A DNA stretch of 64,000 nucleotides from Elsinoe ampelina (taxonomy: Eukaryota): positions 62,001 through 126,000 of the forward strand of contig ML992513.1 of assembly GCA_010093995.1 (NCBI GenBank). The letters are read 5' to 3'. The number at the start of each line of letters is the position of its first letter. Positions within the stretch are counted from its first letter, which is position 1. The position numbers and the translations under genes are program-made. Below the pieces are notes generated by a model. The model made no database searches and had not been told where the DNA came from. It saw nothing but the letters and a program-made list of their open reading frames with translations. Of this stretch, positions 15,632-39,395 are shown in pieces.

Positions 15632-15660
15632 ACGTCACGAAAGTCCTAAGCGTAGGGAGT
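15632..15660 (+). repeat. Left terminal inverted repeat of the giant element
   Basis: Inverted match to 39364-39392. Confidence 0.8.
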
Positions 15661-15714
15661 TAGAATATTAGGTTTCTCCGTATTAAACTAAGTTTAACTA
15701 CGTTAAGTCGCTAC

Positions 15715-15807
15715 AAACGCACTACACCTACCTAAATTTAGTTAAACGTACTATACCTACCTAATTTTAGTTAAACGCACCGTACGTGCCTTAGATTAGA
15801 TAAACGC
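15715..15807 (+). repeat. Subterminal tandem repeat, ~3 copies of 29 bp
   Basis: AAACG(C/T) recurs at 15715, 15744, 15773 and 15802, with unit AAACGCACTACACCTACCTAAATTTAGTT; the third copy is diverged. Confidence 0.8.
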
Positions 15808-15829
15808 TCTACTTGCTGCAACTAGAATA

Positions 15830-16600
15830 GATGTAGAAATCAACGAGTATCTTCCGGAGAGGGCCCTCTAAGCTAGTGTTATTATAGATCTTGTCCGCTA
15901 GATAGAGGGGAAGTATATACTCTATATTATCGAAGCTCGGTATAGAAGCGCTTTCGCTATAATAGGAAAGTAGACATTGTACGCCTTGTTCTCTAGCTTA
16001 CGACATAAAACCCTAAACTAATATATACTTATTCTAACTCTATTTTATTATCTCTACTTAGTTGTCTATTAAGGTGTTAGATGTCTCTAAAGATAAGCAC
16101 TTTCGCGTAACTATATAGCTAGCGATAAAGGTTAACACTAACGAAAAGCGCCTCTATTGCCCTATAGCCTATAAGTTCTACTATCTAGCGGCCTATATTG
16201 TCGATAATATAAAACAAGCTTATAGAGGGGTATTTATAACTTAGGCTCGTAGATGCAAGGAAGCTTTTCCTAAGAAGGACTTAATTATTATAGCTAAGTA
16301 TAGTTATAATATTAAGTATAAATACCTATAGACCTATTCTAGTACTTAGAAGTCGTTAGTAATATAGGAAGAGAATAACAATAGAAGCTAGATACACTAC
16401 ATTAATAGTGGCTATAGTAGCGAGGCTATAGCCTATTCTAAGAAGATCGACACTAACACGGACAGGTGCGGGAAATGTAATAGACATTTAGTTTAGGCTA
16501 AGCTAATTCCTCGTCTACTAACACGGAATAGTATACCTACTAGAAGGATAATTCTAGAGCTACGAAAGACTACCTAGAAAAGTAAGGTCCGATAGACATT
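15830..16600 (+). pseudogene. SprT-like (GCNA/Spartan family) zinc metalloprotease, RIP-mutated
   Basis: De-RIP in one frame: TIQLAIKVDTDEKRL..IAHEFCHLAAHIVD..KQAHGGVFMTWARRC..AKHGYDIKYKYLWTC...HSKKIDTNTDRCGKCNGHLVQAKPIPR. HEXXH at 16170-16184; CGKC survives unmutated at 16467-16478. Boundaries approximate. Confidence 0.8.
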
Positions 16601-18019
16601 AGTATAGTATCTAAGTAGCCCCGGAGATAGTACTAAGGATATAGTAGTCTAAATAACAGCTCGAAGGTAGTTATAGCAAAGAAGTAAATACTCTTTCTAG
16701 GAAGTTTAAGATCTACCCTAACTACCTATCTATAAGGTTATTAGTAAGGAGGTAATTAGTAATAATAAGAGGCTCCTTCCGCTTCTTACTCTTCTCCTCT
16801 GCCTTACCGAGCTTAATACTAGTATAGCTATAGATACTAGCGAAGGTAGGGGTAGTACGCTTCTTGCCTTACTAGCTCTCGGCGCTAGTTATAGCAGTCG
16901 TCGGAGAGGTAATAGAGGTAGTGTCCGGGTTAAGATTATAGCACTTTATTACTATATATTAAAGATAAGGTTACCCCGATATATACTAAGCTTCCGGCAA
17001 TAACTCGTAGTTATAGCTATATATAAGTAATAGTAGTTATAGAGGGAGTAGTAGTAGTAGCTTTAGTTATAGTATACCTTACTATAGTAGAGAGCGAGAA
17101 GGAAGATATAGGGGAGAAAGGGGGTATTTCCCTCTCGGAGGTAGATATAATAACACTTTTTCCTACTATATCCCGCTACTCTACTATTACTACTACTAAG
17201 TAGTAGTTACGGTAATAGCGTATATAGGATAATCTAGTATACAATCTTATAGACAGGATTTGTCGTATATATATTATGTACTAATAATCTTACAAGGAAA
17301 TACTTATAACCTACATAGATACGGAGGAGGCTTTAGAGGACAAGGAAGAGGCTACTTGCCGTACTAAAGGGTAGCTTCTTCCTCGACTCGTTTCCCGCGT
17401 ATAGTATATATATAGAGATCGATAAGAATGTTCCCTAGTAGGTCTTCTAAGCTAGTGTTATTATAGATCTTGTCCGTTAGATAGAAAGGAATAAGTCCTT
17501 AGTAACTGCTCTAGTAGCATCGAGTAGATCCCTACGATATAATAGTAAATAGGGCAAAGCGCTATTGTCTATATTAGAGTCTTATTAGTAAACTTATTAT
17601 AGAGAATAAACTTTCCTCTTAGACCGCTAACTCTATTAGTAAAACTAACCTAAAGATAACTTACTAACCTAAGCCTTTTACCGCTATTGCTAAATACTTA
17701 AGGTATATCTTAAGTATCTTAAAGACTAACTTCTATAACGCCTCGCTATAATTTCCTAAGCTATCGTAATTAGTAAAGGAATAGACTAACTCTTTAGCGT
17801 AAAAACTATATAAGGCACCTTAGGCCGTAAACCCTATATAGTTTAGGGACTAACCTAATAATACATAGGTATAAACTAACTAGTTAGGGTAATACCTACG
17901 GAAGTTATTATAACTCGCTTACCTAACATAGTCTAGTAGTTAACCTAAGTATACCTAAGCGTTAGGCTATTAATATAAGAGACAATTGTTCTAGCTATAA
18001 AAGAAGTACTCTAGCTTCG

Positions 18020-21000
18020 TTAATGCCTACTACGCTTACTAACTACGCCTAGGGATCTTAACCTCTCTCGTTTTAAAGCCTTAGCTAGGTAGAGCTATTT
18101 AGACTCCTATAACTTATTCTATAGCATGTTATATGTGTCGAAGTTAGCTATATTATTAATATATATCCGGCCGTATAGCTTCGTTTTATCTACTAGCACG
18201 ACGTAGATACTATAGTAGATTTATAAGGTAGAGTAGATACGCCTACTAGTAAGAGCGTTCCGTCTAGCTCGCGCGCGTCGATTTGTCTAAGGCTTAATTA
18301 GTATTATGCTATACTCTCGATTAGCTACTCTATCTAGCCGAGTAGGCTAATATAGATCTACTAGCGCTCCTATATAGTATAGGCATTAACGCCGGCTTAA
18401 TCTACTAGACTAGAAGCTATCCTCTATAGTTATTATAAATATAATACGAGCTAGTAACTTACCTTATAGGCTATTAGGTAATGCTCTATTAGTGCCTTTG
18501 TTATTCGTTGTCTATTCTTGTACCTAGAGCTAGTCTTGCCTCTTATTACTACGTATTCTCTACTATTTAGTTATATACTAGATAAAGTCTTATTTGTCCG
18601 TATTAGGATTATTAGGATTATAGTCGAATAGTTTCCTACACTTTAAAGAATAGTAGAACTTAACGCGAAGGTTACTTACCCGGGAAGAATCTAGTTTAAG
18701 TCTGTTAGGATCTAGTTCGGCATTAAACTAATTAGGGTATTTAGTTCTCGAGTTAGAGCCTATATCGGCTATACCTTAACAAGCCTTACGGACAAACACC
18801 GCTATTACTTACTATAGCAATAGCCTAGGTAGTATGTTAATAAGCGCCTCTAGTTCTCTTACTATACGCTATATAGCTCTCCCCTTAGCGCTAGGCTAGC
18901 TAAACTAAGAAGTAACGTTTACTACATCGCTTACGCCGACTAGCGTACTTTAGATCTTAATTAGTTTAGTAGCTAATAGCCTAACTAACTTCGAGGGGTT
19001 ATCGAATACTACTAATATGTTTACTAGTTTAGTGTTATAAGTAGTAACCTAGTCTTCCTATCTAGCCTTCTTATTTGTAAGTTTAAAGGCGTCCTTAATA
19101 AAGCATACATAATTGTGCTTTAAATAATTAGAATTAAGGCTAGTAACTACTTTAAAATTATAGATAGCCTTCGAAAAATGTATTATTAAGTGCTATTTTA
19201 GAAAGTTAAAGTTGCTCTCTTCTTTCCTGTTGCTATAATAGGCCCGGAAGGTTTCTTTATACTTGTTTATCCTAAAGAGCGTAAGGTTAATATACCGGAG
19301 TATATCGTCGTTATAGGTCTTATAGTTTACTAGTAATATAAAGTCGACTAGTACGCGTATAAACTTAATAGCTTAAGGCGCCTTAACCTCCTCGAGTAGC
19401 GGTATAAATACTAGAAGTATCTAGCGTATAATACTCTTCTACTCTTAACCTGTCTATTACTTAATAGCTAAGTAGTATAAGAAGTGTCGAATGCTAGGAA
19501 ACACTAGTATACTATCGAAACGCTTATTAATAATATTAAGTATAATCTTCTTTACTAAGCGCTAGTAGCCTATTCGCTATATAGTCTCTTTAGCCTTTAT
19601 ATACCGTAGTAATCTCTATATAGGTATTAAATCCTAGAGCAATTTTTAAGTCTAGCGTAAGACGTGTATTAAAACGCCTTTAAGAAGTTAGTATAGAATA
19701 TCTAGCACTATCGCGTAGTAAATATTAGTATACGAAAGATCCTATATAAAGTAACTAACTATATAAACCTAAGAGCTTATATCTATCTTCTCGCCTCGCT
19801 ACTAACTCTCGCGTGCTTTTCTCTATAAGCGCTATTATCGCTACGTAGAGTAGTAAGTTTAGAACGGCATAGTAACTACTAGATTCTCCCTTTTGTCCTT
19901 ACTAATTAGGCAACTTATACAATGATATAGTAACTTTATACCGGTTATAGTAACCTATTCGGTGTAATTTATAGACATAGTAGTAAGTATAGAGAAGTAC
20001 CTCTATCTCTTTCTATTTGTATAGGAGATTATTTCGCCCTCTCTCGAGTAGTAATTAATAACAGCGTTAAAGATTTTCTTTATACAAGCGTAGTAGGTCT
20101 TCTCCTTGACGATATTACTACTATCTTTAATAATAGAAAGTAAGCCGATTAGTAACTACCTCGGCCGGTAGTTGCTATTATATACTTCTACCTTTAGGTT
20201 GCCTAATAATAGATAGATAGTATATACTATAAGATCTCCTTAATAGTTTATTACCTAGGTCTAATTACTTACGACAATTAATGGAATAATAGTAGCCCCT
20301 AGTATCCTAAGTCGCTTTTGTGTGTTCTACTACTAGTCGCTACTTGCTATTTTAGTGTACACTCGTCGTAGTAGCTTACCCTCGATAGCTTCTATAAAGA
20401 CTCTATATAGGCTATAGTCTATATCTGCTATAAAACCGCGATAGCTAAGCAAGAAGTGTATCGCTATAAGAATATCTAGATGCCGGAACGTGTGTCTTTT
20501 AGGCCTACGATTAGTGTTTAGTATAAAGCTCGAGGTCTACTAGCCGTTAATACCCTCGCCTGTATCTAAATTCTCTATCTTCTCTATTAGTTCATTCGTA
20601 GTTCGCTAACTAAGGCTCTCTACTAGAGGTTATATACGTAGGTCTTTAAGCAATTACGTAATTATAGCTCTACTAAGTTTCTCCTTTATAAGCTACTAGG
20701 CAAGACCTACGTCTATACTACTAATAAAGGCTTCCTTTAGTTAAGTCTCGCCTAACTAATTATAATTTAGTTCATCGTCGGTGTTAGTATATATATTATA
20801 GACTTAGGGAGATCTAGATAAGATTAGTTAACGCGAACTAAGGATAAACTATATCTATAACTAACTCTTTGCTGCTAGCTAGTATACTAGTAGCTATCTT
20901 AAACATAGTATAATTAGATGTAGCTCTACTAAATAAGGACAACCTCCTAGTACTCCGCTCTATAGATATGCTACTAGTTATGCTTACTGTAATTACTTAC

Positions 21001-21557
21001 TCTTTCTCGTGTATATCTTCTATTATAACCTTGTCTATGCTCTCCTCTTCCTTGTGTACGTTACTATCGAGCCTACTATTACTATTACTGTCTATTCTAC
21101 GTGCTAGAGGTCGAGGATTAAGGTCGGTAAAGAGACTAAGAGGATTGTCCGCTATACTATGCTATATAGTAGGCAAAGGGGGAAGGACACTCTCTGCCGG
21201 CTATAGACTTTCGTTTTTACTCTAGTATTTAGTTTAATTCTTAGTTACTGTTATTCGCGGCGGAGTAAAGTAAACTAGCAAGTTATTTAGCATTAGCGGA
21301 CTATGTTATATATTACTAGTAATACTACCTCGTTAGCCTTTATTAGATAGTAAGCGCTCTCCCTTATTAAACAAGCGGAGATTGTTATTAGTATTGTCTC
21401 TACGTAGATGTCTATTACTACGTTACTCTAGTAAGACTTGCGCTATGTTACTTATTAGTAGCTCTCTTCTCTAGTAATATAGTAGATGTTAGATAAGGCC
21501 TCTACTAGATTATATAATCTTCCTATAGGCCGAGTATTTACTAATTTGCCTTAGTAT
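18020..21557 (-). pseudogene. Plavaka-family (CMC-related) transposase with N-terminal C2H2 finger and acidic linker, RIP-mutated
   Basis: De-RIP: RRVYTEMASGDWWWNTQKRL..GATIIPLIVASDQTQV...AIYLSLGNL...RPGWLLIGLLPI (~20140-20370); ADYTEQV..TGIKSHYHCTSC (~19915-19980); PDILHQLLKGVF (~19675-19705); C-terminal HVVP...YVNN..DFDTYNML (~18120-18215); N-terminal CSACGK...LIQHL (~21480-21540). Confidence 0.85.
20791..21257. repeat. Internal direct repeat 1, copy A (acidic N-terminal region of the transposase)
   Basis: Aligns without obvious gaps to 28143-28609 (offset 7352). Confidence 0.9.
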
Positions 21558-21639
21558 ATCTGTGTTTGTCGCTTAAGATCTAAATTCGTAGTTAGAGTTA
21601 GCTAGCTAAATTTTAGCAATAGTAGGAAGTAAGAAACGT

Positions 21640-24620
21640 TTAGATACTATATTATATTAGGTAACCTAAAAGATAGTTTAACATGTATAGGGAACTAAAT
21701 TAGTCTACTAAACTAAAGAATTACATTTTTAGGTGATATAGTTAGACTATTATCTAGTAATCTTAATTATTATCTATAACAATTGTGTTCTTCTTCGCTA
21801 TAGCTTATTAAAGTTTCTAGATCTTTGCCCTCTACTTCTCTATTTCCTCGTAGATAACCTTCTATATTATTAATAGCCTACTCTATCTACTATTAAGCTA
21901 TTCTAGAGGCCTATAGAATAGAGCTGTCGGCTTTATTATAAACGCCTCTATATAGTTAGCTTTCTAAGACTTAATATTTCTATAGACCCGAGCTAGATAC
22001 TAAAGGATAGATTATAACACTAACGCTATGTTAAGTAAGATTATAGTGTCGAAGCGGTTTAGATTAAGACTAGTCTTAATAGCTCTACTCTAGGCAATTA
22101 AGATCCTTAAGCCTTCCGGCCTATTAGGTTCGATAAACGTATTATTAGACATAGCTACGTCGACGATATCTATATAGGCAGGTATAGATGTTATTCTATA
22201 GTAGACAACAACTACATTAGCATTCTTATTAATCCTAATTGCTTTGCTGTCTAGGTGCTTCTTAAGCTATTTTAGATACTATGCCCTTGTTAGTAATAAC
22301 CTAAATAGACTAAATAGACCGAACTAACCGTTGTAGCGACTACTAGCACTAACAGTATAAACGTATAGACAATTACTTGCCTCTTTAGCTCCTTCGAATA
22401 GGAGACGTTCTACTTAATAATCTTAGAAATAACACTATAAAGGACCTTTATCTAAGGACTAGCGTAGATCTTATCTATGTGCTACTATAGCGCTATCTCC
22501 GAGGGGTTATATATAATTTTATAGACAAACTTAATAGTAAAGTCGCTAAACTCTTCTACGACTACGGGATTGTCCTAGAATATATCTATAAGAGCGAGAA
22601 ATATAGAGAAAAGTAGTAGTAGCGTAACTAGGCTTAGTATTTACTCCTTAGTCTTCTTATTAAGGATTGTCTCTAATATTACTTTAGGCTTGTTAGATTT
22701 GTCCTTTTACCTATTAATTGCCTCTTATATACTCTTATCTATATTCCGTTTAATCTTCTTCTATATATTTATAAGACTATAAAGATACTTATTCTCGATA
22801 GTAATCTCTAGGTTAAAGGTAGAATATAGTAGAACTCTAATAGCTAGTAGACTAGGAGTAGTATCGAAAGGTTTCTAGATGTAGTCTACGTTTATCTTAA
22901 TAAGAATGTTCGTAAGAATAGTGCCCTATTTGCCGACTATTACTATAATCTCTTTTATAAACTATATACTTCTCTTTTTGTTAAACTTACTAGAGTCGTT
23001 GTTCGCCTTATACTATTTATTAATTACAAAGGCATAGTCTAATACTATTTAGAAGTTAAGCTTGTTAGCGATAGCTTATTAAGTCTTATCTAGTGTTATC
23101 TTTAGTGTTACTTAACATTTGTTGTCCTTAGCCTTAGTTAGCTCCTACTTAGATTTATAGATATAGTTCTTGTTAAATTCTCCTATTCTACTTCTATTTG
23201 CATTAAGCTTTTCTAATCTAAAGTCCTTATATATAGCCGCTATTAAGAACGCTACTATATTTAAGCACTTAACAAATAGCGTCCCGCTTATACCTAGTAT
23301 AAAAGGCCTCCCCGGTAGTATTCCTAGATAACACTAGGTCTACGTCTTCTAGCTAGTAACCTAATAGAACTTATTAAAGATAACAGCGGCCTAGTTTATA
23401 GGCGTAGACCTCGGCTTTCTCTCTTGTCCCTTAGGAACAAAGTTCTAATCCTTAGTATTTATATTATTCTTACTAAGGAAGTAGTAGATTATAGTGTTAT
23501 AAGTGGTAAAGAAGAACTAATTATTTATCTATAAGGTCCGGGGGTGTCGCTTATGTATATTAACTAGTTATAAGACTATAATAGTGTCGATAGGCTCGCT
23601 AGACTTATCTATCGGCTAAGACTTCTATTAGCGGTAGTCTATAGGTAGATTCTCTTTGCAAATTAAAGTGTCTATGTTATATACGTCGCTATACTTATAT
23701 TCTCGTATAGCTTAGAATATCCTTCCCTAGTATAGAACGACCTTTATATTAGGTATAAACTTCCGTGTCTCCTACACTTACTATTTTATTACGTTTAATC
23801 CGCTAATAATTAGATTATAGTTAATAGTATCCGTAGAAGCGATATCTAGCTATAGCTCGTTAACTAGTGTCTTTACCTTCTAGTACTTGCTCTACTTGTC
23901 CTTAGGTATAGTAGTATAGTTAGTATCCTAGATAACCTTTTTATTTAAGTTCTAAATTAGTAAGAGGAAGAAGAGTCCTATCGGAGTCTTTCTAAATTCT
24001 ATCTTATATATAAACACAAATGCTAGATAGCCTTCGAGGTATTTCTTAAGTATAACAAGTGCTAAGTATATCTATACTACCTTAACTAGATACTTCTTGT
24101 TCTAACTAAAACACTATATACTAGCGTTTAGTAAGTAGATGTCTTTCTTAAAGCCTATAAAGTTATAGACTCTCTCCTAGAACTCTTCGGACTAGTAATT
24201 AATTCTAGTGCCTATAGAGATAAAGCTTTAGTTAGCTAGATTATTACTAGTTTACTTGTCGTCGTTGTTGTTTATAGTATAAAGTTTAACAAAGTTCGAG
24301 CTACTAAGAGTCTTATTAAATATACAAGTTACAAGCGCTAGGATAGGTATAGATAGTATCTTAGAGACTAACGGAATATAGTACCTTACTTACTCCTTAC
24401 TAGGTATAATTATAAAGGGATACTAATTGCTATCTCGGCATTGCTTGTAGTATTTGTCTTCTATTACCCGAGTAGGACGATAGTTAATAGTAGTATTATT
24501 CTCGTTAGGTAGTAGAGAGCTAGGTTGCTTCTTAGGGGTAGATTTATATAGTAGTAGGCGCTTAGCCGGAGATAGAGAGGCTAGAGGTTCCTCTTCCTCT
24601 TCCTCCTAGACTAGAGTCGA
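21640..24620 (-). pseudogene. SF2 helicase/ATPase, SNF2-like, RIP-mutated
   Basis: De-RIP: Walker A EMGFGKT ~23985-24008; motif Ia NLII...VIEQWVQE ~23765-23820; W.AVIFDEFH ~23364-23395; ILGMSGTP ~23277-23300; C-lobe ILI...AIETGLNL...IILLD...YLARVHR ~21980-22105. Boundaries approximate. Confidence 0.75.
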
Positions 24621-24849
24621 TAGCTTCTAACTATTATAATACTAAAGAGGGTTAACTAAGTATGTTAGTATATACCTAAGTCGAACTAAGTATTAAACTT
24701 ATAAAGTACTTCTTCGGGAAGCTTCTTAACTAGATCTATACTAGGCGTAAGATAGACGAAGATTATATTACTACCTTTAACTAGGGAGTTAATATAGTTA
24801 ATTATAGTAGTACGTAGGTCGTAGTTGTCTAAGATAGGTAGGATGTTAT

Positions 24850-25744
24850 ATAGCTCTATATAATCTATCTATATAAGAATAATGTTATTACTAACTAACT
24901 TCTTCTTCTTTAGAAATAGCTTAATATTATTAAGGCTATATACGTTCGAATTATAATCCCCTAGATGTGACCTTAAAATTCTTAGACTAAACGCCTATAG
25001 ACAACGTAAATATTCTCTCTTTATAATTATGCCTAGGCTAATGTCTAATTACTTAACAATTATAAAGTTAATAATAGTTTTGTTAATAATACTCTAGACT
25101 AGACGAGATATGTCCTCTAGTATTTGCTACTAACGTATAGGCTAACTAGTGTAGTAATTAATATCTATACCTATAAGTCCGCTACCGAGTATAGAAGTCT
25201 CTAATCTTTTAGAGAGTCTACTATTAGACTAGGTAGCGGAGGGGCGCTTTCTAATATACTTCTTAGGATAAGCCTTCTTGTCTACTTTAGTCTAATTCTT
25301 CTTATTCCTAAGCTCTTACGCCTTAATAGTAAGGACAAAATCTTTAATAACATTATAACTAGATATATCGTTATAGTTTCTAACGTTCCTCTTAAACTAG
25401 TCTTAGTCTTAATAGTGTAGTCTTTAAAAGAAGATCTTTGTATAGTTATCCTAAGAGTATTATAGGGAAGTTTTAATGTTGTCTATAATCGTAGTTATAT
25501 TAATGTTACTATCCTAAGGTTTCTTATATTTAAGTCTTAGAACTGTATAGGTATTCTTATATTCTTTCTACGCTCTTACGCGTGTAGCGGCGTACTAGTT
25601 GTCGTTCTAGTTAAAGAATTTAAGGAAGAATCTCTTAATCTTAAGGTTTTTATCGAGCTATACTTAAATTTCTATAGGAGGTCTTTTGTAAAGCGAAATG
25701 TTATTAGTAGCTATACTAGCGCTATTAGGCTAATTCTTAGACAT
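24850..25744 (-). pseudogene. Unknown cargo gene, paralog of the N-terminal part of the gene at ~30850-33020
   Basis: Surviving ATG at 25744. Shared blocks with 32630-32880: GTTCCTCTTAAACTAGTCT vs GTTCTCCTTAAACTAGTCT, and FFNQNDNWY vs FFFNQDNW.Y. Confidence 0.45.
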
Positions 25745-26675
25745 ATTACGTACGTCTATAAGCTTAGTATATGCTATAAATAAAGCTTAGAATAATATCT
25801 AGTAAATAGGTTAAGTAGGTGTAGTAGATATTAAAGAAGAGATTCTATAAAGGTGTTATGTATTTATAAGTTTAGAAGAATTAAGGAGAGGATTTGTTAA
25901 TATAGTAGGTCTATACACTTTGTAATATATGCCTAACTAAGACTTAACTAAAGAGGAGATATTTAAGTAAAGAGCGCTTAAAAGAGAGATTAAAGAGGTT
26001 AAAGAAATACTAGAGAGCTATATAAGTTATTTGTTTATATATAAGAGAGTATAAACAAAGGTAAACTAAAGCAATTAAGGAGAGAAGTGACCTAAATTTA
26101 GTCGACTTAGGTTAGGCCCTGAACTAAGCACGTAGTAGTATACTAGATACAGTATATATATAATAGTAGATCACTTAGTTTAGACACTAAACTAAGAGTA
26201 ACTATAGTCCGTATACTTAGTTACCTTTTATTTTACATGCCGTATATACTAAGGATACTATTGTCGTATTTAGGGTAGATCTTAAGGGATAATAGTCTAA
26301 TAAATAAAGGGAATATAGTAGTAGTTAACGTGAAATAATTAAACAATTTTTTAACAGCGAAACTAGTATTCGTATATAAAGGACAATAGTAATAGAACAC
26401 AAATAGAAGGTAGTTAGTAGCCTATAGCAGAATAAAGAGCATAGTATATATAGCGTATAGTATAGCTTATAGATGCTAGTAAAGGAACAAAGAAAGTAAT
26501 ATACTACTATCTAATTATCTAGACTTTATAATTGCTACATGTAGAATCGAGTAGTAGAGTAGAGTAAAGGCTATATATTCTGTAGAATAGGCAGTTAATA
26601 GTACATTCTACATAATTATAAATGCGCTTTATTCCTCGCCTAGCTCTACTAGAAAGGCAATAGCGAGAGAGGACG

Positions 26676-27442
26676 CTACTAGTATAGCTCCGCCTATAAC
26701 GCTCTCTATAGTAAGCTACTATCTAGTAGAAGGTAGTAGATATATCTTTGCCCGCGATATTTCTCTATCTCTTCCTCTTTGTTATACTAGTTATTCCTCT
26801 ATAATTCTCCTCTTAATATCCTTATACTATAAGGCAGATAATCCCTAGTAGACGCTAGCTCCTCTACCCTCTTTACGTACGCTAGAACCTCTAGTAGCAC
26901 TATCTATAAGATCGGGAGATGCTCCGCGATAGATTTGCTTAGTCGTAGCTACTAGGTAGAGATAGTAGCTAGTTCTACTAATAATACGTAGCTAGTGTAA
27001 AGGAAGCTATAGAGAGCAATAGTAGCGGAGAGAGAGAAAGAGATATTAGAGTCTCCTTATACACTCTTAAGCCTATAGCGGCGTAGTAGGCAAGATAGAG
27101 AGGTATACTATAATAGATTTACTCCGGCGTAACTACTAGGTACTAGTAGTAGTTAATCCTATAAACACGATATAGCTAGTATAGAGAATACTATTAGAAG
27201 TAGTAGCGATAGCGATATAGGAGTAAATATTAGAGTTACTATTATGTATATAGCAATAGATAATTGTAGTATACTAGGCGAGGGATCCGCTATAATAGAT
27301 AGCTAGCTATTATCGAGGTTAGATAGAGAGGAGAGAAAAGGTTACACTAGGGATGCCGATACCTACGTTTAGGTCGGTATAAGTAGAGAGCGTAAACTAA
27401 GATATTATAGTGAATCGTATCTACGATATAGTTATGTCGCTA
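26676..27442. repeat. Internal direct repeat 2, copy A (~770 bp, probably a small minus-strand gene)
   Basis: Colinear with 33848-34615 (offset ~7172), differing mostly by transitions. Confidence 0.9.
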
Positions 27443-28142: not shown

Positions 28143-28609
28143 ATATATTATAGACTTAAGAAGATCTAGATAAGATTAGTTAATATAAACTAAGGATAAA
28201 CTATATCTATTACTAACTCCTCGCTACTAGCTAGTATACTAGTTACTATCTCGAACGTAGTATAATTGGATATAGCTCTACTAGATAAGGACAACCTCCT
28301 AGTACTTCGCCCTATAGACGTGCTACTAGTTGTACTTACTATAATTACTTACTCTTTCTCGTACGTGCCTTCTATTATAACCTTATCTATGCTCTCCTCT
28401 TCCTCGTGTACGTTACTATCGAGCCTACTATTACTATTACTGTCTATTCTACGTACTAGAGGTCGAGGGTTAAGGTTAGTAAAGAGACTAAGAGGATTAT
28501 CCGCTATACTATACTATATAGTAGGCAAAGAGAGAAGGACACTCTATGCTAGCTATAGGCTATTATTTCTACCTCGTTACTTAGTTCGGTTCTTATTTAC
28601 TGTAATTCG
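28143..28609. repeat. Internal direct repeat 1, copy B (transposase N-terminal paralog lacking the catalytic part)
   Basis: Aligns to 20791-21257; the sequence to its left is not Plavaka core. Confidence 0.9.
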
Positions 28610-28989
28610 TAGTAGAGCTAATAGGACTAAGCTATTATATAGCGTCGGCGGACTAAAGCTAAAATTGTATCTACGCTATAGTACTAAACACGTCGAGACA
28701 GAGTTTACTCTAATATATCTAGGTAACAGGGTTTGTTAGCTGTCTCTTACTTAAGGACGATATTAAATACTATACTTAATTAGCTATTGTTGCGCTATTG
28801 TTCTTAGTAGAGGCTTTTATAGCAATTATAAAACAGAAAGTGCCGCGTAGGTATAATAATTTTAGCTAGTAAACAATTTATAGCTCTTACTATCTCGTGT
28901 CTCGACTTGTCGCTAGTATTATAATAAGTTAGTTATAAATAGCCTCTACGAAAAAATAGCAATAGTAGTATATAAAGACGCCTCGGCTA

Positions 28990-30650
28990 TATAACGTTAG
29001 GTCGTTTATGCCTATAGTTAATCTGTTAGGAGTAGTCGATTAGTTTGCTAAACTAAAACTAGTACTTTTTAGGTAAAAATTGTAGGCGTTCCCTTAACTA
29101 ATCTTAATAAGGATAAACTAATAATTTGCTATTACTCCTCTATTAGTTTAAACAACTACGCTTTTAGTTCGTCTACTTTGCTATATTGTCTTATATAACC
29201 TTCTATATTATCGTTGGTATATCGTAGCTATAGTTAACCTACTTCTTCGGCCGATAGGATAGTATAGTTAGCTTAAGCGTAAATACTGTTATTATATCTA
29301 CGCTAGCGAATGTTATATTTTCTAAGGCACTATCGAAAGCCTACTATAATAATTAGATCTATATACTAACTTTGTGTTAAGCGAAGTTATACTATTAAAG
29401 TAGAAGCACTAGCACTTTACTTGTTATAGAACTATATACTATTCCTAGTTATAAACTAACTAGCGTAGCCTTCTCGAAGTAAGTTTACTTCGATATAGCT
29501 ACCCTAATAATACCTACGTAGCTTACTATAGACTTCTCTCTATAATCGACAACGACGACTTTAGTGCCCTTACTAATCCTAATAGCTCGGCTATTTAGGA
29601 TTCTCTTAAGTTATCGTAGATATAGCTCTCTTATTAGTGACAACTAAACTAGACTAACTAAGTTAAACTAACTACCGTAGCTACTACTAGCGCTATAGAG
29701 TTACACGCACGAATAATCCCTTACTACCTCTTAGTCTTCTAACTATAGGCTTTCTATTCTATAATCTCGAGGATAATAACATAAAGGCTCTATATTCCTA
29801 ATCTAGCGTAGCGCTAGCTATATACTTGTCTACCGCTTCGGCTCGGAGTATAAAGTCTAAAGAGTATCTATAGCCCCTACTATAATGTTAGTCGATATTA
29901 TTACTCTTTCTATACTAGCGGGGCGGTAGAGTAAATAAAGTAAGCTTATAATAATATCTAGTATAATTACCTCTAGGTTCCTTTTGCTTATCGAATATAG
30001 ATATTATCCCGTGCTACTCTCTCCTATATAGCGTCTCTATAATCGTAGTTAAGGTATACTCCCCTATACGTAAAGCAATTTATATATATAGTGCCGCTAA
30101 AGAAATAAGATATCTATCCTCGATTGAAACTTTAGAGTTCTAGTTAGGAATATCTCGAACCTAATAAGACATAAAAGTAGGTATAGCCGCTAGATGTTTT
30201 ATAATTAGGTTAAGATACATGTCAAGAGGAATAAATAGAAGTCTAGCTATCTATATAGGGACTAATATAAAGATTTTAAACTAGAAACGAGAAGTGACTA
30301 TTATATTTACAAAAAGGAAGCCGCGATAGGCTTTAACTATTCTTATATTACCTTTATATAGGTAGAGAGCTACCTCTTATTATATTATATAGTAATATCG
30401 AGTTAAATCGTGTCTAGTTTATCCTCTCTTATCTTTTGTAATAGGTACGTCTTTACCGCCTATAGATAGAGACTAGCTCTACTATATCGAAGCTATCTTT
30501 GTTAAGTAGTAGGTATCTAATTCCTTTCTCTCGGTGTAATTAACCTTATATTAAATATTAAGCTTAATACTAAACCCACGTATATAGTTAGTAGAGCTAT
30601 ACTAATGCCGAGTAGTAATTGCCTAACGAGGAGAGACATAAGATAGCTAG
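28990..30650 (-). pseudogene. Diverged paralog of the C-terminal half of the SNF2-like helicase
   Basis: Patchy colinear similarity with 21650-22500, e.g. 29041 TAGTTTGCTAAACTAAA..TTTTTAGGT vs 21701 TAGTCTACTAAACTAAA..TTTTTAGGT; 29190 ATAACCTTCTATATTAT vs 21854; 29580-29700 vs 22230-22350. No Walker A or DExH seen. Confidence 0.55.
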
Positions 30651-30849
30651 GCGTTATAGTGTTCTCTTAAAGGACTTATCCGCCCTAATATAAAATAAGT
30701 TTGTCTCTAGTTTTAGACTAACTAAACTAACTTAAGTTTGTACTTAGTTAGGAGGCGCGACCTAACCTAAAGCATCTCTGCTATTTATTAAGAGGTAGTA
30801 GCTAGAACTAATAATAGTTAGTAGGAATTCTTTATTAACTTCTAAGCAT

Positions 30850-33020
30850 GCTACGTGTAAACCTCGCTAGTATATAAGGGTAAAGCCTAATAACTATATT
30901 AGTAGTAACATCTACGCGCTTCTTTATAGCACTATACTATTCTTATTTAATTTAGTTAACTCTAAGTTCGGCATAGAACTAAAACTTGTACTATTGCTTC
31001 TACTATAATAGAGAATAAGATTCTATCCTACTAACTTGTTTCGCTTATTATTAAACGCCCTAGTCTGTTATATCTATAGTAGCATTACTTTATTTCTATT
31101 GTTAATAATATTAAGAACATATTACTTTTTTAATACTAATATTAATCTTGTATTAGTAGAAGTAAGTCGTTATCTTCTTAGACTTACTCTTTTCGCTCTA
31201 ATATATTATAGCGTGCTAGGCAAGCTATAGGAAGTCACTAGTAACAAAGTAGAACTTAGGAGAGGTATTAAAGAGCTCCGAGAGATTATATTTATCTAGA
31301 TAGATAGCCGGCCTTAGGTGTATAGTAGCTTATATAATATTCTTTAAGCTATTAAAGCAGTAGGAACATAGATAGCGCCTCGGTAGTATATACTATAGTC
31401 TAAATAGGCTATGTTCTTCTAGCGGGAGAGAAGGAGCTATATTCTTCTAAAACTATATAAAGTAAAACTACACCCTAAACTAAGTCGCTAGGTTAGTTAA
31501 AATCTGTCTAGCTATAGTTATAGAACTATCGAGTAAGTTTGCTTCTAATAACAATAACGGAAATTGTAGGATTTATAGAGGCTATAGCCTCTTAGGGGTA
31601 GAACGAGCTAAATAAAACTTTATTAGTTAAGAACTAAATAGTTTTATAAATAATATAATAGCAAATAAAACATAGTAGCATCGCCGCTCTTGCCTTTAGT
31701 AGTTTAGTCGCTATTGCGGGTATTAAACGTTCTATATTATAATATTCTCTTTCTACTAATCTCTTTTACGCTTCTTATTAGTATTAATATCTATAAAGCG
31801 AAGCTTCTTAGGAGTAAGAAACACTTCCGAGTTCTCTTCTATAGTAGTCTTAGCTATAGGAAGTAGTCGCTAGCTACTATAATATTAATAAGAGTTATCT
31901 ATAAGTATTAGTATATATAGATAAATAGAGAAGGGGTAAACTTACTTCGTATAAAGTTAGGAAGATCTTTAACAAATGCTATAAAAGGAGTAAGATAGAG
32001 AAAGATCTTATAGGCACTAGGGATAAGAGTTATAACATGCTTAGTAATAGTAGCATCTAGATCGAAAGAGTCTTTAATAGCGAAGACTTATATAGAGTTA
32101 TATACGTTAAGCTAGTAGAGTTAGAGGTAATTACCTCTAATGTTAAGAATCTACCTAAGCTTACTAATGTAGTAATTAACGTAACGATTCTTGTCCTTGC
32201 TAGTACTAGGCTTTCTTAAGTCGTAAACGTGGATATTCTTTCTTAATATTAGATACGAGATAGTGTCCGCTTCGATGACCTCTATAATCTAGATCGTAGC
32301 GAATTTAATATCGATCTAGACATAATTAGACGCTAGCCCCTAGTTGAAGCTAAACATCCTATAACGAGGCTATATATATAAATCTAATCTTTTATCGCCT
32401 GTCTTTATATAAGTTATATATCTCTCCGAGGATAGTATTCTTACTTAGAAGAGTATTAGTATCTATACAGACGAGGTAGCTAAAGGATATAGACTCTAGG
32501 TGCCTTCTTTACCTAGCAATGTTATTCTTTCCCTTTTAACTAACGGGAGATTTGCTCTTATTAATTGTATAGTATTTCGGAATAATTGCTATATAGCTTT
32601 TATCTTATTAATATTAACTATAGTCTATAAGTTCTCCTTAAACTAGTCTAGATCTTTCTAATCTAGTTAGTTAACGAAGAGCTAGAAATTGTTAGGCGTG
32701 CTATTTAGTAGCCTAGTTTCAATTTTAAGGCGTGCTTTAAGCACCTTAGGATTACGTAACTCGCTTCTGTCTTATTTCTTAATTTTAATATTAGATTCTA
32801 TAAAGACTTTTAAGATTATTTCCTTTATCCTTGTAAACGTAGTAGAGTATTACTAGTTATCCTAATTAAAGAAGAATTAGATAGATTTCTTACTAACATT
32901 ATTATTATAAAGCGCATTCTTAATAAGAGCTAGTATAAGGTCGTTAAGTAGAATCTTTTCTATAGGTTTAGTAGCGACCTTTAGCTTCTTTATCTTCGGT
33001 AGTATAGTACTATTATATGT
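30850..33020 (-). pseudogene. Unknown multi-exon cargo gene, longer paralog of 24850-25744
   Basis: Coding-like minus-strand texture, GTAAG..CTAA..AG intron-like signals (~31140-31190, ~31890-31950), and paralogous blocks at 32630-32880. Confidence 0.4.
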
Positions 33021-33847
33021 ATTTAATAAGTATAAGAATATCTACTAGTAAAGGCGTCGTATAAGGTAGATAAGGTTAGAGGGGTTAAGATTATATAGCT
33101 AGGAACTAAGCGTAGTAAGTTAAGCGCTATAGAGCAAATAGTAGCAATTATAAATACCTACTATCTAGTATAATATTAAAATGCTACGCGGAAAGTAGGT
33201 AGTAACTTCTTAAATATAATAAAATTTGTATTTAAGATAGTATACCGAAGTAAGTAGTATACTTATAACTAAGATCTAGTTTAGGCCTCGACCTAAAAGT
33301 GAACTAGGTTAACTAAGTCTATGTTTTATATATGCTAATAGTAACACGTAATAATTACTAATATTAGGTCGATACTAGAACTAAAAGTAAATAAGTTAGT
33401 TTACTACTAACAAATATTATAGGGCGTAAATTAGGTAAGCAAATAAAACATAGCTATCGGAGGATATTATAAGTGCTAATTATCGCAGAAAATTAGTATT
33501 AAAGTAATTAACTATACTAAACGCTCGTATATTAGTGCTATATATAAAGTTATATATGCTCTAAACAGCTAGCGGACTATTTAATAAAGAGTATTATCGT
33601 ATAAAGCAACAACCTTAATATCTTTATAGTAGACAGGAGACAAGATAAATAACAAGGAATAAAGAAAGATATATAGTATACTTACACGTATTAGACAAGG
33701 AGATTTTATTTACTAGTTAGAGAAGAGAGATTAAAGCGATAGGTATATAATCTACATAGAAAGAAGTACATCGCTAACGTAAGGAAGTTATAATAAAGCG
33801 CTACTAATAACAAAACCCTGCTATAAAAGCAATTATAAAAGAGAATA

Positions 33848-34615
33848 CTACTAATATAGCTCCGCCTATAATGCTCTCTATAGTAAGCTACTATCTAGTA
33901 GGAGGTAGTAGACATATCTTTGCCCGCGATATGCCTCTATCTCTTCCTCTTTGTTATACTAGTTATTCCTCTATAATTCTCCCCTTAATATTCTTATACT
34001 ATAAGGTAGATAATCCCTAGTAGACGCTAGCTTCTCTACTCTCTTTATATACGCTAGAACCCCTAGTAGCGCTATCCGTAAGATTAGGAGATGCTCTATA
34101 ATAGATTTGCTTAGTCGTAGCTACTAGGTAGAGATAGTAGCTAATCCTACTAATGATATATAGCTAGTGTAAAGGAAGCTATAGAGGGCAGTAGTAGCAG
34201 GGAGAGGGAAAGAGATATCGGAGTCTCCTTACGTACTCTTAAGCCTATAGCGGCGTAGTAGGCAAGATAGAGAGGTATACTACAATAGATTTACTCTAGC
34301 GTAACTACTAGGTACTAGTAGTAGTTAATTCTATAAACACGACATAGCTAGTATAGAGGATACTATTAGAAGTAGTAGTAATAGCAAGGTAGGAGTAAAT
34401 ATTAGAGTTGCTATAGTATATATAACAATTGATAATTGTAGTGTACTAGGCGTAGGAATCTGCTATAATAGATAGCTAGCTATTATTAAGGTCGAATAGA
34501 GAGAAGAGAAAAGGTTATACTAGGGACGCCGATACTTACGTTTAGGTCGGTGTAAGTAGAGAGCGTAAACTAAGGCGTTATTATAAATCGTATTTGTAAT
34601 GTAGTTATATCGCTA
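33848..34615. repeat. Internal direct repeat 2, copy B
   Basis: Colinear with 26676-27442. Confidence 0.9.
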
Positions 34616-34849
34616 CGTAATAAGCATATAATAAAACTAAGAGGAGATAAAGTTTAGCGCGTTAAACTTTATAGTTCTACGAGTGTTAGTTTAGGCTAAC
34701 TAATTATAACTAAGCACAATTCTAGTATGTCTCTCTCGTAAGTAAACTAAGATCTAAGGCTTGTTTATTATAAGTAACACTTGCACCGAATTGCTACCTA
34801 TACCGCCGCTCTTCTACCCCTACTTCTCTTCTCCTCTCTATAGCTATAC

Positions 34850-37800
34850 CTATATCTACTTCTTATTAACTAGTAATATGCTTAATCGAAGCTATTAAGC
34901 AAGCTCTCGCCCTTAACAATAAAGGCTATAGAGACTTATATAGTCTCTTAGAGGATATTATAATAGGTAAAGGCATAGTTAGAAGAATATTTAGGTCGAT
35001 TTCTAATAGGAGAAGGTTAGAGAAGGAGGTACTTCTAGTAGTACTAGATAGTAATAATATTCGGTGTACGTTTCGGCGTACAATAGAGCTCTTAGAGAGT
35101 AGCGACAGTTAAGCTGCCTTTCGTGCTCTTATCTATAAGATAAGTACCAATTTTAGACATTAGCAGGTATAGTTATACTTAAGATTACATAAGCCTAGAG
35201 GAGCGTAGAATAGTGCTAATACGCTTACCTCGAATAAATCCTCGAATTGCTAATTGTAATTATAAGCGCCTTTACTCTCTAATCGACTAGACGACATACT
35301 ATTAGTAGTTTATAAGGATAGAGAGATATGTCCTATCTACTTAATTAGAGATCTTCTACTTACACGTTATAAAGCTATAACTACTATGTCTAAGGAGAAT
35401 ATAGATATTAAGTTTAATTAGCTAAGGGTAATATCAATTATAACGGACTACTATATATATAATAAGCAAAGTAATGTTATAGGTTAGAAGGACAATAAAA
35501 CGCTATATTTCGCTATAATAGAGAATACTATCTAGTTTAAGGCTGTTATCTTATCTAAGATATTACATAGTTTACCTCTTTATATTCTAATAAGGCGACG
35601 AGATTAAAGAAAGTATCTAGCCGAAGCAAGTATAAAGGAGAATAGTCCGGTAGTAGACTAAGTCGAACTAAAAAGTAGTAGGGCAATCTACGCTAAGCTA
35701 TACCTACTACTAAACCCTAGAGTTTTAGTTCGTTTACTACGCTTTATTCTTCCTTACCTTTTAACTAAATCGCCCTTTAGAATTACTTATCTATCCTCTT
35801 ACTATTAATCTATTAGGTCTATTAGTATCTTTCGGCTAGGCTCCTAAGTATAGATATCGATCGTACTAACCTTATTTCTCTAGCGGCTAATATCTAGACT
35901 ATAGGATTAAGTATATAGGCTTCTCTTATCTATTTAGGTGTTAAAGCATAGTCTTCTAATAGTCTCCCTAACTAGCTAGAGGCTTAAATTAGAAGCTCTC
36001 TACTATATATATACGGAGAAAAGTATAATTACATTAGTAGCTAGTAAAAGCGATATAGGACCTAGTAGCCTAAATAGCTTAATAGATAGTAACTCCTAGA
36101 GGAAGACATTACACTTGTTTAGTAGGAAGTAGGCCGATTGTAATTAATAGCGGAGAAGAACGTAAGCTTAATTAGATAACTCTAGCGAGAGAACAATATA
36201 CTTAGGAAGTATATTAGTAAAGCTTTTTACGCGTTTAGCGTCGCCTCTACGGACCTTACTAGTAGAGTGTTAAGGGACTTATTCGAATTAAACAAAAGTA
36301 TACGACACTATACTAATAGTACTACTCTACTATTACTATATATAGTTACTAATAGCTAATTAACACCTGCCCTCTATTACAACATAATTAGTAGAAGATA
36401 AGCTACTCTATCTAGCGTATCTTATTTAGATACCCTAGATAGCGAGATAGTAAGTAATTAATGCTTTTAGCACTTAGAAGATATACTACTTAGCAAAGAG
36501 GGGACTACTAACGTAATTAATAAGGAAGCTACTACATAAATCGTACTACCTATCTATATATATAATAGCTAGTTCCTATAGTCTTTCGAATTAGTATATA
36601 ATTACTCGGTCTAAGTTTAATCTGTAATTTCTCTCTACGTATTTCTACTCTAATTGTTGCTTAACCTAATAATAAATGCTATATTTAGTTTAAGCATTTA
36701 GTCTAAGTAAGTTCGAGTAGCTTTCTTTTTTAGTTTAGCTTCTAGCGATTAACACTCCGCGAGTTAGACCTAGCTATAAGTCCAATTTAATACCCTTACT
36801 AGTTAAGATTACCTTAGGGTATAGGCAAATATAACTAATTCTAATTAGAAGAAAGTCGCGCACTTTAAATACCTAACTAAGCTATTATCTAACTTAAACT
36901 AACGCTAAATTACTATAACGTATATAAGATAACTATCTATCCCTCTTATAGTATATATTATTCCGGCTTACCTTGCTAACTCTCTTATACCTATATACCT
37001 CTTTATTAGAACTATTATAAACTAAAATGTCTTAGGCACGTTAGCGCCTATATAGCTCGGACTATAAGACCGATAAGTATTTTAAAGATAATAATTTAGG
37101 TTATTTTAACTAGGATAAAGCAGAGTAAGGCTTTAGCATTAAGGGAGACTAAGCTAACTACGTAGGCTATAAATACAACATCGAAGACAAAGGAGAAGGC
37201 ATAAATTAGATATTACTACTCTCGATCCGAGTTTAAGAGAGCTATAACCTAACGAGAATAGCCTAACGTTAGTCTCTACGCCGGTTAAGATAGTAAAGTA
37301 GAGGTAATAGAACGTACTAAACTAGTATCTCGACATTTTCGAGGTAGTATATAACGATCTACGTACAAGTATAGCCGTCGGAGTAGATTATAATACAATA
37401 TTACTAACATTAGATAATTAATAGCTACTCCTACGAATTACACGGTACTAGCGCTTAGTCCGTAACTAGCTACTAGTACTTTATCTATAGAGGACTATAG
37501 GTAAATACTCTTCCGTAGTTATAGCTAGTAAGGTAAGTTACGTAGCTAAAGCTAATTACTTATTAATATACATATAGCTCCGAGAGGCGCTCCGCTATAG
37601 TTATAATAACATTACACGAATAGTAAGTAAGATACTCTACTACGAATAGCTAGCTAAGGGGCTAGAGGATAGCGAGCTACCGAATTAGGCACGTAGGCTA
37701 CTAGAGGAAAGAAAGTACTAATACAAGGACAGCAATTTAGTACGCGCTAGATATACTTATTAATTAATTGCTTATATATAGTAGCGTAAACACTTTAGGA

Positions 37801-39100
37801 GTCCTTTAATATATAAAGCCTTCTAAGTAGCCTTTATTAGACGTATAGGCTTAGCTATAATAGCTAGTACTTACTATTACTTTAACGAACTAATACTCTT
37901 TCTTATTTTCTCCCTTCTAGCGACGATTTATATACTCTTAGTTAAGTAAGTAGACGGGGTTAAGTCCTACTTACCTAAGAGAACGCTAGTATTTAAACGT
38001 ATAGAACCTTTAGAACTCGATTATGTCTGACTAAGCATTTAGAATAACTTCCTAGTGTAGATTAGCCCGAGATAGGTTCTTATCCTTCGTTAGCTAAAAC
38101 TTAGCTTTACTAAGTGCGTTAAGAGAAATAGACTTACTATCGTAGTAGTAGTATTAAATATATCCCTTTACGCTAATACTATAGAGAGACTATTAGATAG
38201 AGAAGATATAAGGGAAAGGTATGTATATACCTTCTCGTTTTAGTTTAGCCTACCTAACTTTAAACTAACTTATAGAGAAGTTAGGTATATAATAACGGGC
38301 CTAATAGCGGGGGTAATAGCTATTATATAGCACTAGTACGAAATGCTTCTACTAAGCACCTTTTAAGAGGTAAGCTTAATTCTCCTATCGGCTTCTTAAG
38401 TTTAATACTAATAGATTAAGAAGAGTATCTAATTAAGGCCGAACGCTCTATTACGGCGCATTAAGGTACTACTTAGTTCGCGTATAGGAGCGAAGTACTA
38501 AATTGCTCTATAGCGACTTCTACGACAGAAGTATAGCTAGCGTAGATGCCTAATATAGATAGCAACCTCGTTGTAACTTTAACTACTACTAAACTAAGTT
38601 AGGTTATAGTTAGTACATACGAGGATTAATAGACTTAATAGCGACATCTACCTAAGCTACTCAATTATATATGTGCTATACTGTCCTAAGACGGACAACT
38701 TAATAGCGATTTACTAGTAGTTAAGGCGTAGTAGAAGGATTTCTTAGGTACATAGACGTAGATAAACTTTTTGTCCTTCGCACGTAAGAAGTTTAGAGGC
38801 CTACTACGTAAACTAGTCTTATAGTACCGAATCGGCCTAAAGCATAGTAGTAGTATCTTAGACATTAAGGAGGATAGACATCTACTAGATAGAGATGCTT
38901 TTATAGAACTAAGAGATAAAAATATAAGATTATAAGAAGATAGTATATACATCGTTATTAAGAGTAGCGTTAGGTAGAACGTAAAGCAATATATATATTC
39001 TAGTAACCTTGCATAATTTTCTAGACGTAGTAGACGAATTATAAGGTCTGTATAATGTATAGACATATATAATATATACTACGAGGTAAGCTACGTAATA
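34850..39100. pseudogene. Three to four further RIP-mutated cargo genes of unknown function (plus ~34850-35610, plus ~37027-37730 spliced, minus ~37920-39100 spliced)
   Basis: Long stop-poor frame LIEAIKQALAL..YRDL at ~34885-35165. Intron-like GTAAGG..GCTAAC..TAG at 37125-37165 and GTAAGT..TAG at 37533-37577. Residual ORF 38686-39066. Confidence 0.4.
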
Positions 39101-39363
39101 GAATGTTTCTATAATTAATATTATTAAGCTTATAGAGTAGACACGAACTAATTACTTTACGAACTAAGAAACGCTTAAACTGAGATAAGAGATACACGTA
39201 GTGCGCTATCTACTATTAGGCCGTCTCTGTTTGCTACGTATTAGAGGTTTTTAGATTTCTACAGGGAAAAACTATATTACTTCTAAGTAGGACCTAGGGG
39301 TAACTAGGGGATTGCATTAAACTAAGTTAAACTAAGTTAGTTGCTTAGAAGTAGTCTAACGTA

Positions 39364-39392
39364 GCTCTCTAGCGTTAGGGATTTTGTAACGT
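39364..39392 (-). repeat. Right terminal inverted repeat of the giant element
   Basis: CTCTCTAGCGTTAGGGATTTTGTAACGT, inverted match to 15632-15660. Confidence 0.8.
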
Positions 39393-39395
39393 AGT

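Follow-up and report, generated by a model that had tools for sequence, protein, structure and literature searches.

Autonomous Plavaka transposons are defined by the Plavaka domain, PF18759 (Hiltunen et al. 2021, PMC8290104). They have been placed in the CMCT clade, and their catalytic region carries C(2)C and H(3-4)H motifs (PMC12730594). In Agaricomycotina, PlavakaA and PlavakaB elements make 2-bp or 2-3-bp target duplications and end in TGT..ACA (PlavakaA) or CATCA..TGATG (PlavakaB) (PMC12730594). A Plavaka from an ascomycete, the Chinese white truffle (Tuber), has a 2-bp duplication and CATAC termini (PMC12581995). Giant Plavaka elements of 17.4-19.1 kb, with accessory genes PAG1-3 and tandem arrays, are described in the red alga Bostrychia moritziana, where giant Plavaka families account for one third of the genome (bioRxiv 10.1101/2025.02.11.637652). 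Here we describe a 64,000-nucleotide stretch of the Elsinoe ampelina genome, referred to as the window (assembly GCA_010093995.1, contig ML992513.1, positions 62,001 to 126,000), in which a 23.8-kb interval interrupts a Copia retrotransposon. We estimate a probability of roughly 0.78 that this interval is a copy, inactivated by repeat-induced point mutation (RIP), of a Plavaka-lineage cut-and-paste transposon, distinct from Starships and present in many copies, that carries a helicase gene and an internal duplication.

The boundaries of the interval were fixed by comparison with uninterrupted copies of the host retrotransposon. We used contigs from two sequencing runs, X1 and X2, as a stand-in for the genome. 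Both runs derive from one sample, probably of the window's organism, and do not represent independent evidence; they contain about half of the words sampled from 15200-25199. Contigs were compared with 15200-28140 at a likeness of at least 80%. In each run, five contigs track the Copia flank to 15632 and then read GTTAAAGCTTAGCC.., which is the window sequence from 39394 onward. Uninterrupted Copia copies read ..GGGGTA|GTTAAAGC.., with base 15631 joined to 39393. Flank and insert have GT in common at the left junction and A at the right one. The interval 15632-39392 is one exact insertion into the linker between the Copia integrase and reverse transcriptase (RT). The features at its ends are as follows.

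15632-39392, minus strand (taken from the transposase): inserted Plavaka-lineage element; the element proper is 15633-39390 if the target duplication is GTA
15630-15632, unstranded: left target duplication GTA (or GT, 15630-15631), from the empty-site contigs and the window sequence
39391-39393, unstranded: right target duplication GTA, from the same two sources
15632-15662, unstranded: left terminal inverted repeat (TIR), identical at 22 of 31 positions to the reverse complement of 39362-39392
39362-39392, unstranded: right TIR, paired with 15632-15662
15715-15807, unstranded: subterminal 29-bp tandem repeat, 3.2 copies (Tandem Repeats Finder, TRF)
39317-39339, unstranded: subterminal 10-bp repeat, 2.3 copies (TRF)

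The target duplication is GTA, or at least GT, because these bases are shared at the empty-site junction. An original prediction made from the window sequence alone had proposed that all 23.8 kb arrived as a single insertion inside the Copia pol gene and that uninterrupted copies would be contiguous across it. Both proposals hold, but the contigs join 15631 to 39393 rather than to 39396 as had been predicted. The predicted short duplication is likewise present as GTA or GT; GGT/AGT is not the duplicated sequence. The same prediction had the Copia reading frame restored by removal of the interval, which the verified junction does not bear out: the integrase and RVT_2 frames are offset there by one base if the length of a nearby run of N is true. 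In a relic full of stops, this offset means little either way. We also considered a 4-bp ACGT duplication with CAC..GTG ends, which would fit the CA..TG rule and restore the frame, and rejected it because the empty-site contigs lack ACGT.

The ends set independently by the empty site carry the imperfect inverted termini of about 30 bp that had been predicted, reading (A)CGTCACGAAAG.. on the left and ..CTTTTGTAAC(GT) on the right. In a purine/pyrimidine alphabet, which is blind to RIP, the two termini match at 27 of 31 positions (chance about 2e-5 at one fixed position pair). The best alignment of the whole arms sits exactly at both termini. A AACTAAGTTTAACT-like motif lies about 55 bases inward from each end, and the predicted subterminal 29-bp repeats are found near the left end. 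These 29-bp repeats are candidate transposase-binding sites. Searching the AT-rich block that contains the insertion for additional copies of the termini gave matches at chance level only. The left terminal 14-mer, with up to two mismatches, occurred twice in 41 metagenome loci of related transposases (described below), and about two occurrences are expected by chance by our own estimate.

The interior of the element was annotated from domain searches, protein and profile matches, and self-comparison.

15663-18040, unstranded: left arm, downstream of the transposase, with a 90-bp direct repeat at 15823-15912 and 17402-17491
18041-20839, minus strand: Plavaka transposase relic in one frame (PF18759; E 1.3e-105 to P0001, E 3e-129 to P0002)
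20791-27442, minus strand: unit U1, made of block A, the helicase gene and block B
20791-21303, minus strand: block A (first codons of the transposase and the region upstream), recurring as A' at 28143-28655
about 21937-24128, minus strand: SNF2/SF2-like helicase relic upstream of the transposase, from P0121 and profile matches
22129-22443, minus strand: mid block, recurring as mid' at 29473-29787
26646-27442, minus strand: block B, recurring as B' at 33818-34615
27443-28142, unstranded: spacer between U1 and U2, with a 100-bp tandem repeat at 27570-27763
28143-34615, minus strand: unit U2, a colinear second copy of U1 whose interior is much more diverged
34616-39361, unstranded: right arm, without a Pfam family and with three-base periodicity at background

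Four overlapping segments covering the interval were each translated in all six frames, with stops written as X, which gave 24 translations. Plavaka (PF18759) was the only Pfam family found at E ≤0.01. The match lies on the minus strand, covers profile positions 38-322 of 325, and scores 93 bits against a cutoff of 26.3 (E 2.5e-26). The transposase named in the original prediction is thereby confirmed. A search with the relic returned P0001 from Polychaeton citri, and the relic aligns to residues 35-938 of the 984-residue P0002. When 30 proteins related to P0001 were compared with the six frames, they found a single location, 18041-20749, in one frame; the 903 codons counted over this range include 66 stops. 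Close relatives of P0001 come from Dothideomycetes (Polychaeton, Taxawa, Aureobasidium, Meristemomyces) and from metagenomes, and Agaricomycete proteins enter the list only from about E 1e-62, at 30-34% identity. The relic retains 52 of 91 columns that are conserved in at least 11 of 12 homologs, and its changes are RIP-like (D>N, H>Y, C>Y, E>K and W/Q>stop). Conserved CxxC and HxxxH pairs are kept and several conserved D residues read N; the correspondence with the published motifs (PMC12730594) is by motif form alone.

Six-frame Pfam searches and searches with transposase homologs found no second transposase, RT or recombinase inside the interval. As predicted, no tyrosine recombinase or DUF3435 family was seen in the 24 translations at E ≤0.01, at a sensitivity lowered by sequence decay. 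On equally degraded flanking DNA, a control recovered RT, RNase H and SH3 domains and missed both integrase (rve) cores; a blank domain search is therefore weak evidence. We conclude from the sequence that the element contains one Plavaka transposase, killed by RIP.

A relic of a second gene lies upstream of the transposase. The element's strongest three-base periodicity lies at 22100-25400, where a codon-position model trained on the Copia and Gypsy genes chooses the minus strand and the sequence resembles the relic of a long open reading frame (ORF). Coding-like signal in two minus-strand frames extends to about 25750. Searching for longer relatives of P0001 produced P0121, a 1972-residue gene model from Aureobasidium pullulans. 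It contains an SNF2-rel_dom (E 1.5e-8) and weak ResIII/DEAD and Helicase_C matches, followed by the Plavaka domain; a Protein Data Bank sequence search with it gave no matches. Against the six window frames, P0121 matched the transposase plus three stretches upstream that share its strand and follow the order of P0121: residues 915-974 at 23408-23235, residues 1193-1274 at 22580-22332 (independent E-value, i-E, 3.6e-4) and residues 1336-1397 at 22101-21916. The helicase motifs are altered in the window, with DEFH reading NKFY, SGTP reading SGTL and Q..GR..R reading stop..AR..R. Apart from G>A in the last motif, all of these changes are RIP-like. Outside the transposase, the window had no match to five further long Plavaka fusion proteins.

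Ten close transposases were aligned, and a scan of metagenome contigs with this alignment gave 41 loci. The first 1560 residues of P0121 match four of them (L001, L002, L003 and L017), in each case upstream of the transposase, with both on one strand. Three close relatives, L001, L002 and L003, extend 2 kb or more upstream of it, and all three have the helicase core; the L017 match is confined to the stretch between helicase and transposase. The remaining 37 loci, mostly 26-37% identical or very short, showed no match to these residues. The order of helicase then transposase is therefore found in the window, in the A. pullulans protein and in these three metagenome contigs. The helicase ORF of L003 is intact, with 1370 residues, a Helicase_C match (E 3.4e-8) and an SNF2-rel_dom match (E 4.7e-5). 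A profile built from P0121, L002 and L003 gave full-sequence E-values of 7.1e-7 and 6.3e-4 in two minus frames of the window (six sequences searched), with colinear matches at 24128-23745, 23402-22335 and 22122-21937. We conclude that the predicted SNF2-like helicase is present as a relic and that it is part of the element family.

Other predicted contents fared less well. An SprT protease had been listed among the cargo, and no SprT-like domain was found in six-frame Pfam searches of the interval, in searches with its ORF pieces, or in the P0121 and L003 ORFs. All Pfam matches of 127 stop-free ORF pieces of at least 38 residues are at chance level. Where nine to ten gene relics besides the transposase had been proposed, we detected two kinds in all, the transposase and the helicase. 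In L003, positions 1-3190 upstream of the intact helicase ORF hold ORFs of 140-334 residues without a Pfam family, which could be further parts of that relative's element. Some Plavaka proteins elsewhere have other partners. P0009 of A. pullulans has the Plavaka domain fused to a Piwi domain, and P0123, P0125 and P0128 of Collybiopsis confluens have it fused to an Ulp1-type protease domain (PF02902). Neither the Piwi nor the Ulp1-type partner domains had a match in the window. These fusions hint that companion genes may differ between Plavaka lineages.

Much of the element's length comes from a repeated segment. Beyond the blocks listed above, a weaker colinear similarity relates 20707-27527 to 28059-34700, with an offset that drifts from 7352 to 7172. 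Because the similarity is colinear along the whole length, we interpret U1 and U2 as a single segment present twice. An internal partial duplication, not additional cargo, accounts for about 6.5 kb of the element. A profile search detected no helicase in U2, and a six-frame protein comparison of the two units gave like scores in every frame, which is uninformative on coding. We rejected two other interpretations of the repeated blocks. A/A' and B/B' are not the long terminal repeat (LTR) pairs of two retroelements, given that their order is interleaved and that no RT was found. Nor are U1 and U2 nested foreign transposons, since they are colinear throughout, border on the transposase start and have the helicase inside.

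The contigs of the same sample also bear on how often the element is repeated. Across all likeness classes, 9294 (X1) and 6730 (X2) contigs were placed on 15200-28140, and about 98% of the differences among the kinds listed are transitions. Summed contig depth over all 29 element bins is 7.0-16.9 thousand in X1 and 10.1-25.9 thousand in X2, and reaches 72 thousand and 58 thousand in the Copia bin. These sums do not represent copy number, and "tens of copies" is an approximate figure based on how many distinct contigs there are. Depth peaks at blocks A and B, at about 1.5-2 times the other element bins, and 1% of placed contig sequence continues into unlike sequence. The junction from the spacer to A' is crossed by at least five sequence variants in X1 and at least four in X2. 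Among the best-supported loose ends listed, none cluster at the U1 borders, 20791 and 27442.

These observations fit a highly repeated family whose copies keep one arrangement of their parts across the left 12.5 kb or more. The even depth and the variants of the spacer-to-A' junction argue that this left part spread as a unit. For the right 11 kb, the case for repetition consists of equally strong RIP and the matching terminus. The predicted amplification of the whole unit accordingly stands for the left 12.5 kb, and the right 11 kb lies outside the region compared. Some contigs of the same organism join block B (26721) to the 3' part of the transposase (18451), and others have loose ends within the transposase at 20168 and 20430. 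Rearranged or interrupted family copies therefore exist.

Direct evidence exists for the exact boundaries with their empty site, for the TIRs and the transposase, for the relic of the helicase gene, and for both the internal duplication and the repetition of the left half in this genome. We propose that a Plavaka-lineage element, related to the CMC/EnSpm group of DDE transposons, landed in the Copia integrase-RT linker and duplicated 3 bp, GTA. On its minus strand a helicase gene precedes the transposase gene, an order also seen in its nearest relatives, which are Dothideomycete. Movement of the whole unit would have been the work of the transposase, binding at the TIRs and subterminal repeats. 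The helicase may have served the element, for example by remodeling chromatin at its ends or by countering silencing. The segment with the helicase gene and the transposase promoter occurs twice, as U1 and U2; this duplication, together with unassigned arms of 4.8 kb on the right and 2.4 kb on the left, brings the length to 23.8 kb. Afterwards, RIP presumably inactivated every copy seen.

Several results weigh against this reading. The terminal bases differ from the published Plavaka motifs TGT..ACA, CATCA..TGATG and CATAC. The score of the whole-arm TIR alignment equals the shuffle mean, and the case for TIRs therefore rests on position and not on score. The helicase region (22389-24698, minus strand) had no matches among 1.84 billion representative proteins, Pfam searches of two helicase-region frames at E up to 10 returned nothing, and the single helicase matches are weak (i-E 0.43, 5.3e-7 and 9e-4) in a tiny search space. 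A/A' and B/B' differ almost purely by transitions, whereas transversions and numerous indels also separate the interiors of U1 and U2. This uneven divergence is not explained by a simple duplication with later RIP, and recombination between diverged family members that share conserved blocks is a possible source. Finally, the comparison with other copies spans 15200-28140, leaving out 28141-39392 and the right terminus, and it draws on one sample and on summed depth that is not a copy number.

The last of these points leaves room for a composite history, in which a Plavaka element of about 10-16 kb was enlarged in place by insertions of unrelated transposons or by local tandem duplication and the 23.8 kb never moved whole. 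RIP-degraded AT blocks are usually nests, a Gypsy element is nested in this same Copia, U1 and U2 have sharp borders, and about 19 kb of the interval has no recognizable gene. Against such a history, depth is flat over the left arm, transposase, U1 and spacer, and the spacer-to-A' junction occurs in several variants without a cluster of listed loose ends at 20791 or 27442. The left border of U coincides with the start of the transposase gene and the family's own helicase lies inside, so U is not foreign. The interval searches found no second transposase, RT or recombinase and only chance-level matches to the termini. We consider this composite history unlikely, though it is the strongest competitor of a single mobile unit.

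Two further explanations dispense with transposition by the Plavaka enzyme. The interval might be a non-transposon repeat, amplified by segmental duplication or recombination, with only accidental similarity between its ends; the shuffle-level arm score and the fact that every copy seen is dead would suit it. It is very improbable in view of the exact empty site with a 3-bp duplication in other Copia copies, the inverted match precisely at independently set ends, the subterminal motif shared at equal distance from both ends, and a full-length transposase of a family that makes 2-3 bp duplications. A Starship-like or other recombinase-driven giant element with an incidental Plavaka relic could fit the size and the unassigned content, and the lowered sensitivity of the domain searches, which missed the rve cores in the control, leaves room for an overlooked gene. 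Inverted-repeat ends and a 3-bp duplication are typical of DDE elements, however, and the 24 translations contain no detectable tyrosine recombinase or DUF3435. Usual Starships are also far larger than 23.8 kb. We regard this last explanation as the least credible of all. A RIP-inactivated Plavaka-lineage transposon that moved as a unit remains the reading we prefer.

The element resides in an AT-rich block of about 37 kb (about 5000-42000) between flanks at 1-5000 and 42000-64000 that are gene-like, with a GC content of about 0.51-0.54. Dinucleotide ratios in the block indicate RIP: TpA/ApT is 1.6-2.2 in the block vs 0.4-0.7 in the flanks, and (CpA+TpG)/(ApC+GpT) is 0.16-0.33 vs 1.1-1.4. Self-comparison of the window found two LTR pairs, both confirmed in the purine/pyrimidine alphabet.

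5322-5582, plus strand: 5' LTR of the host Copia, 88% identical to 41174-41434, with nearly all differences transitions
41174-41434, plus strand: 3' LTR of the host Copia, paired with 5322-5582
6515-13501, minus strand: Gypsy element nested in the 5' part of the Copia, with RVT_1, RNase H, Integrase_H2C2 and SH3_Tf2-1 still detectable

The Copia LTRs end in TGT..ACA and are bordered by a perfect 5-bp target duplication, CCCGC, at 5317-5321 and 41435-41439. In translations with X at stops, SH3_retrovirus (the integrase end; E 4e-6, about 14916-15110) lies left of the insert, and RVT_2 (E 1e-8) lies right of it, starting directly after the run of N. Because this LTR pair has a target duplication and encloses both domains, the entire AT-rich block, 5317-41439, is a single Copia insertion in GC-rich DNA. 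The Gypsy LTRs (about 6515-6743 and about 13273-13501) are 229 bp long and 94% identical. Subtracting the Gypsy and the studied interval from the Copia leaves about 5.4 kb, a usual length for Copia. The run of 195 N at 39516-39710, either an assembly gap or masked sequence, sits in pol just ahead of the RT, 123 bases beyond the claimed right end, and restricts any reading-frame argument. In the integrase-RT linker, 300 bases to the left of where the element inserted, lies a 12-bp tandem repeat (9.1 copies, 15226-15334). The RIP signal weakens inside the outer portion of the Copia 5' LTR.

We compared the element with described transposon systems. It resembles fungal Plavaka elements in its PF18759 domain, its TIRs, its 2-3 bp target duplication and the cut-and-paste DDE mechanism of the CMC/EnSpm-related clade; its CxxC and HxxxH pairs may correspond to the published motifs as well. 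Unlike them, it ends in (A)CGTCAC.. rather than TGT..ACA, CATCA..TGATG or CATAC; its Dothideomycete transposase group is only about 30-34% identical to Agaricomycete ones; its accessory gene is SNF2-like rather than TET/JBP; and it is 23.8 kb long and has been subject to strong host RIP. We take the deviating termini to argue for a separate sub-lineage, and they leave membership in the superfamily untouched. The giant red-algal Plavaka elements offer a parallel in their very large size, their internal tandem repeats, their combination of a transposase with accessory genes for chromatin or DNA modification, and their massive amplification into mostly degenerate copies. They differ in kingdom and in their accessory genes, which encode an N6-methyladenine (6mA) methylase with a SET domain and a ParB protein with a 2-oxoglutarate (2OG) oxygenase where the window has an SNF2-like helicase; the window family's copies were, in addition, killed by RIP.

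More distant systems share some of these traits. EnSpm/CACTA elements also make 3-bp duplications, have short TIRs and subterminal repeat arrays, carry another gene next to the transposase, and are related in transposase fold. The window element lacks CACTA termini, and its transposase matches only PF18759 (Pfam, E ≤0.01). Starships are likewise large, occur in filamentous ascomycetes and carry genes other than a transposase. The window element differs from them in having TIRs, a short duplication and a DDE transposase with no tyrosine recombinase found, in belonging to a family of many copies, and in an accessory gene that appears to be the element family's own rather than host cargo. ToxhAT is described as a hAT-type element of about 14 kb from Dothideomycetes. 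It resembles our element as a large DDE-type TIR element with extra genes and differs in its superfamily (hAT) and in its cargo, a host-interaction gene.

Our literature search found no Plavaka with an SNF2-like partner; the two were mentioned together only in an unrelated context. It also found no characterized Plavaka from Dothideomycetes. The word "Dothideomycetes" is absent from PMC12730594, whose supplements may hold closer families. The original prediction had presented the interval as a distinct type of giant element in an ascomycete. That claim was overstated, in view of the giant red-algal elements (bioRxiv 10.1101/2025.02.11.637652) and the truffle Plavaka (PMC12581995). Because giant Plavaka elements with accessory genes are described from red algae, this lineage was already known to include large multi-gene DDE elements. 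We tentatively suggest, as an idea somewhat more likely to be wrong than right, a third Plavaka sub-lineage centered on Dothideomycetes. Its members would have an obligatory SNF2-like ATPase partner that helps at the level of chromatin or against silencing, much as has been suggested for TET/JBP and the red-algal PAG genes. Members of about 24 kb, in many tens of copies, would make up a sizeable share of this genome's RIP-degraded AT-rich compartments.

The locus provides the full anatomy of a Plavaka element in a RIP-active ascomycete, including its ends, target duplication, gene order and internal duplication. The literature we found characterizes such elements from Agaricomycotina, truffles and red algae only. 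Automatic annotation is likely to miss elements of this kind because everything except the transposase is unrecognizable after RIP. Very large DDE elements can, beside Starships and retrotransposons, form AT-rich compartments in such fungi. The SNF2-like helicase joins a set of chromatin-related Plavaka genes that already includes TET/JBP, a methylase with a SET domain and ParB with an oxygenase, and as a companion gene it strengthens the idea that these transposons bring their own tools against host silencing.

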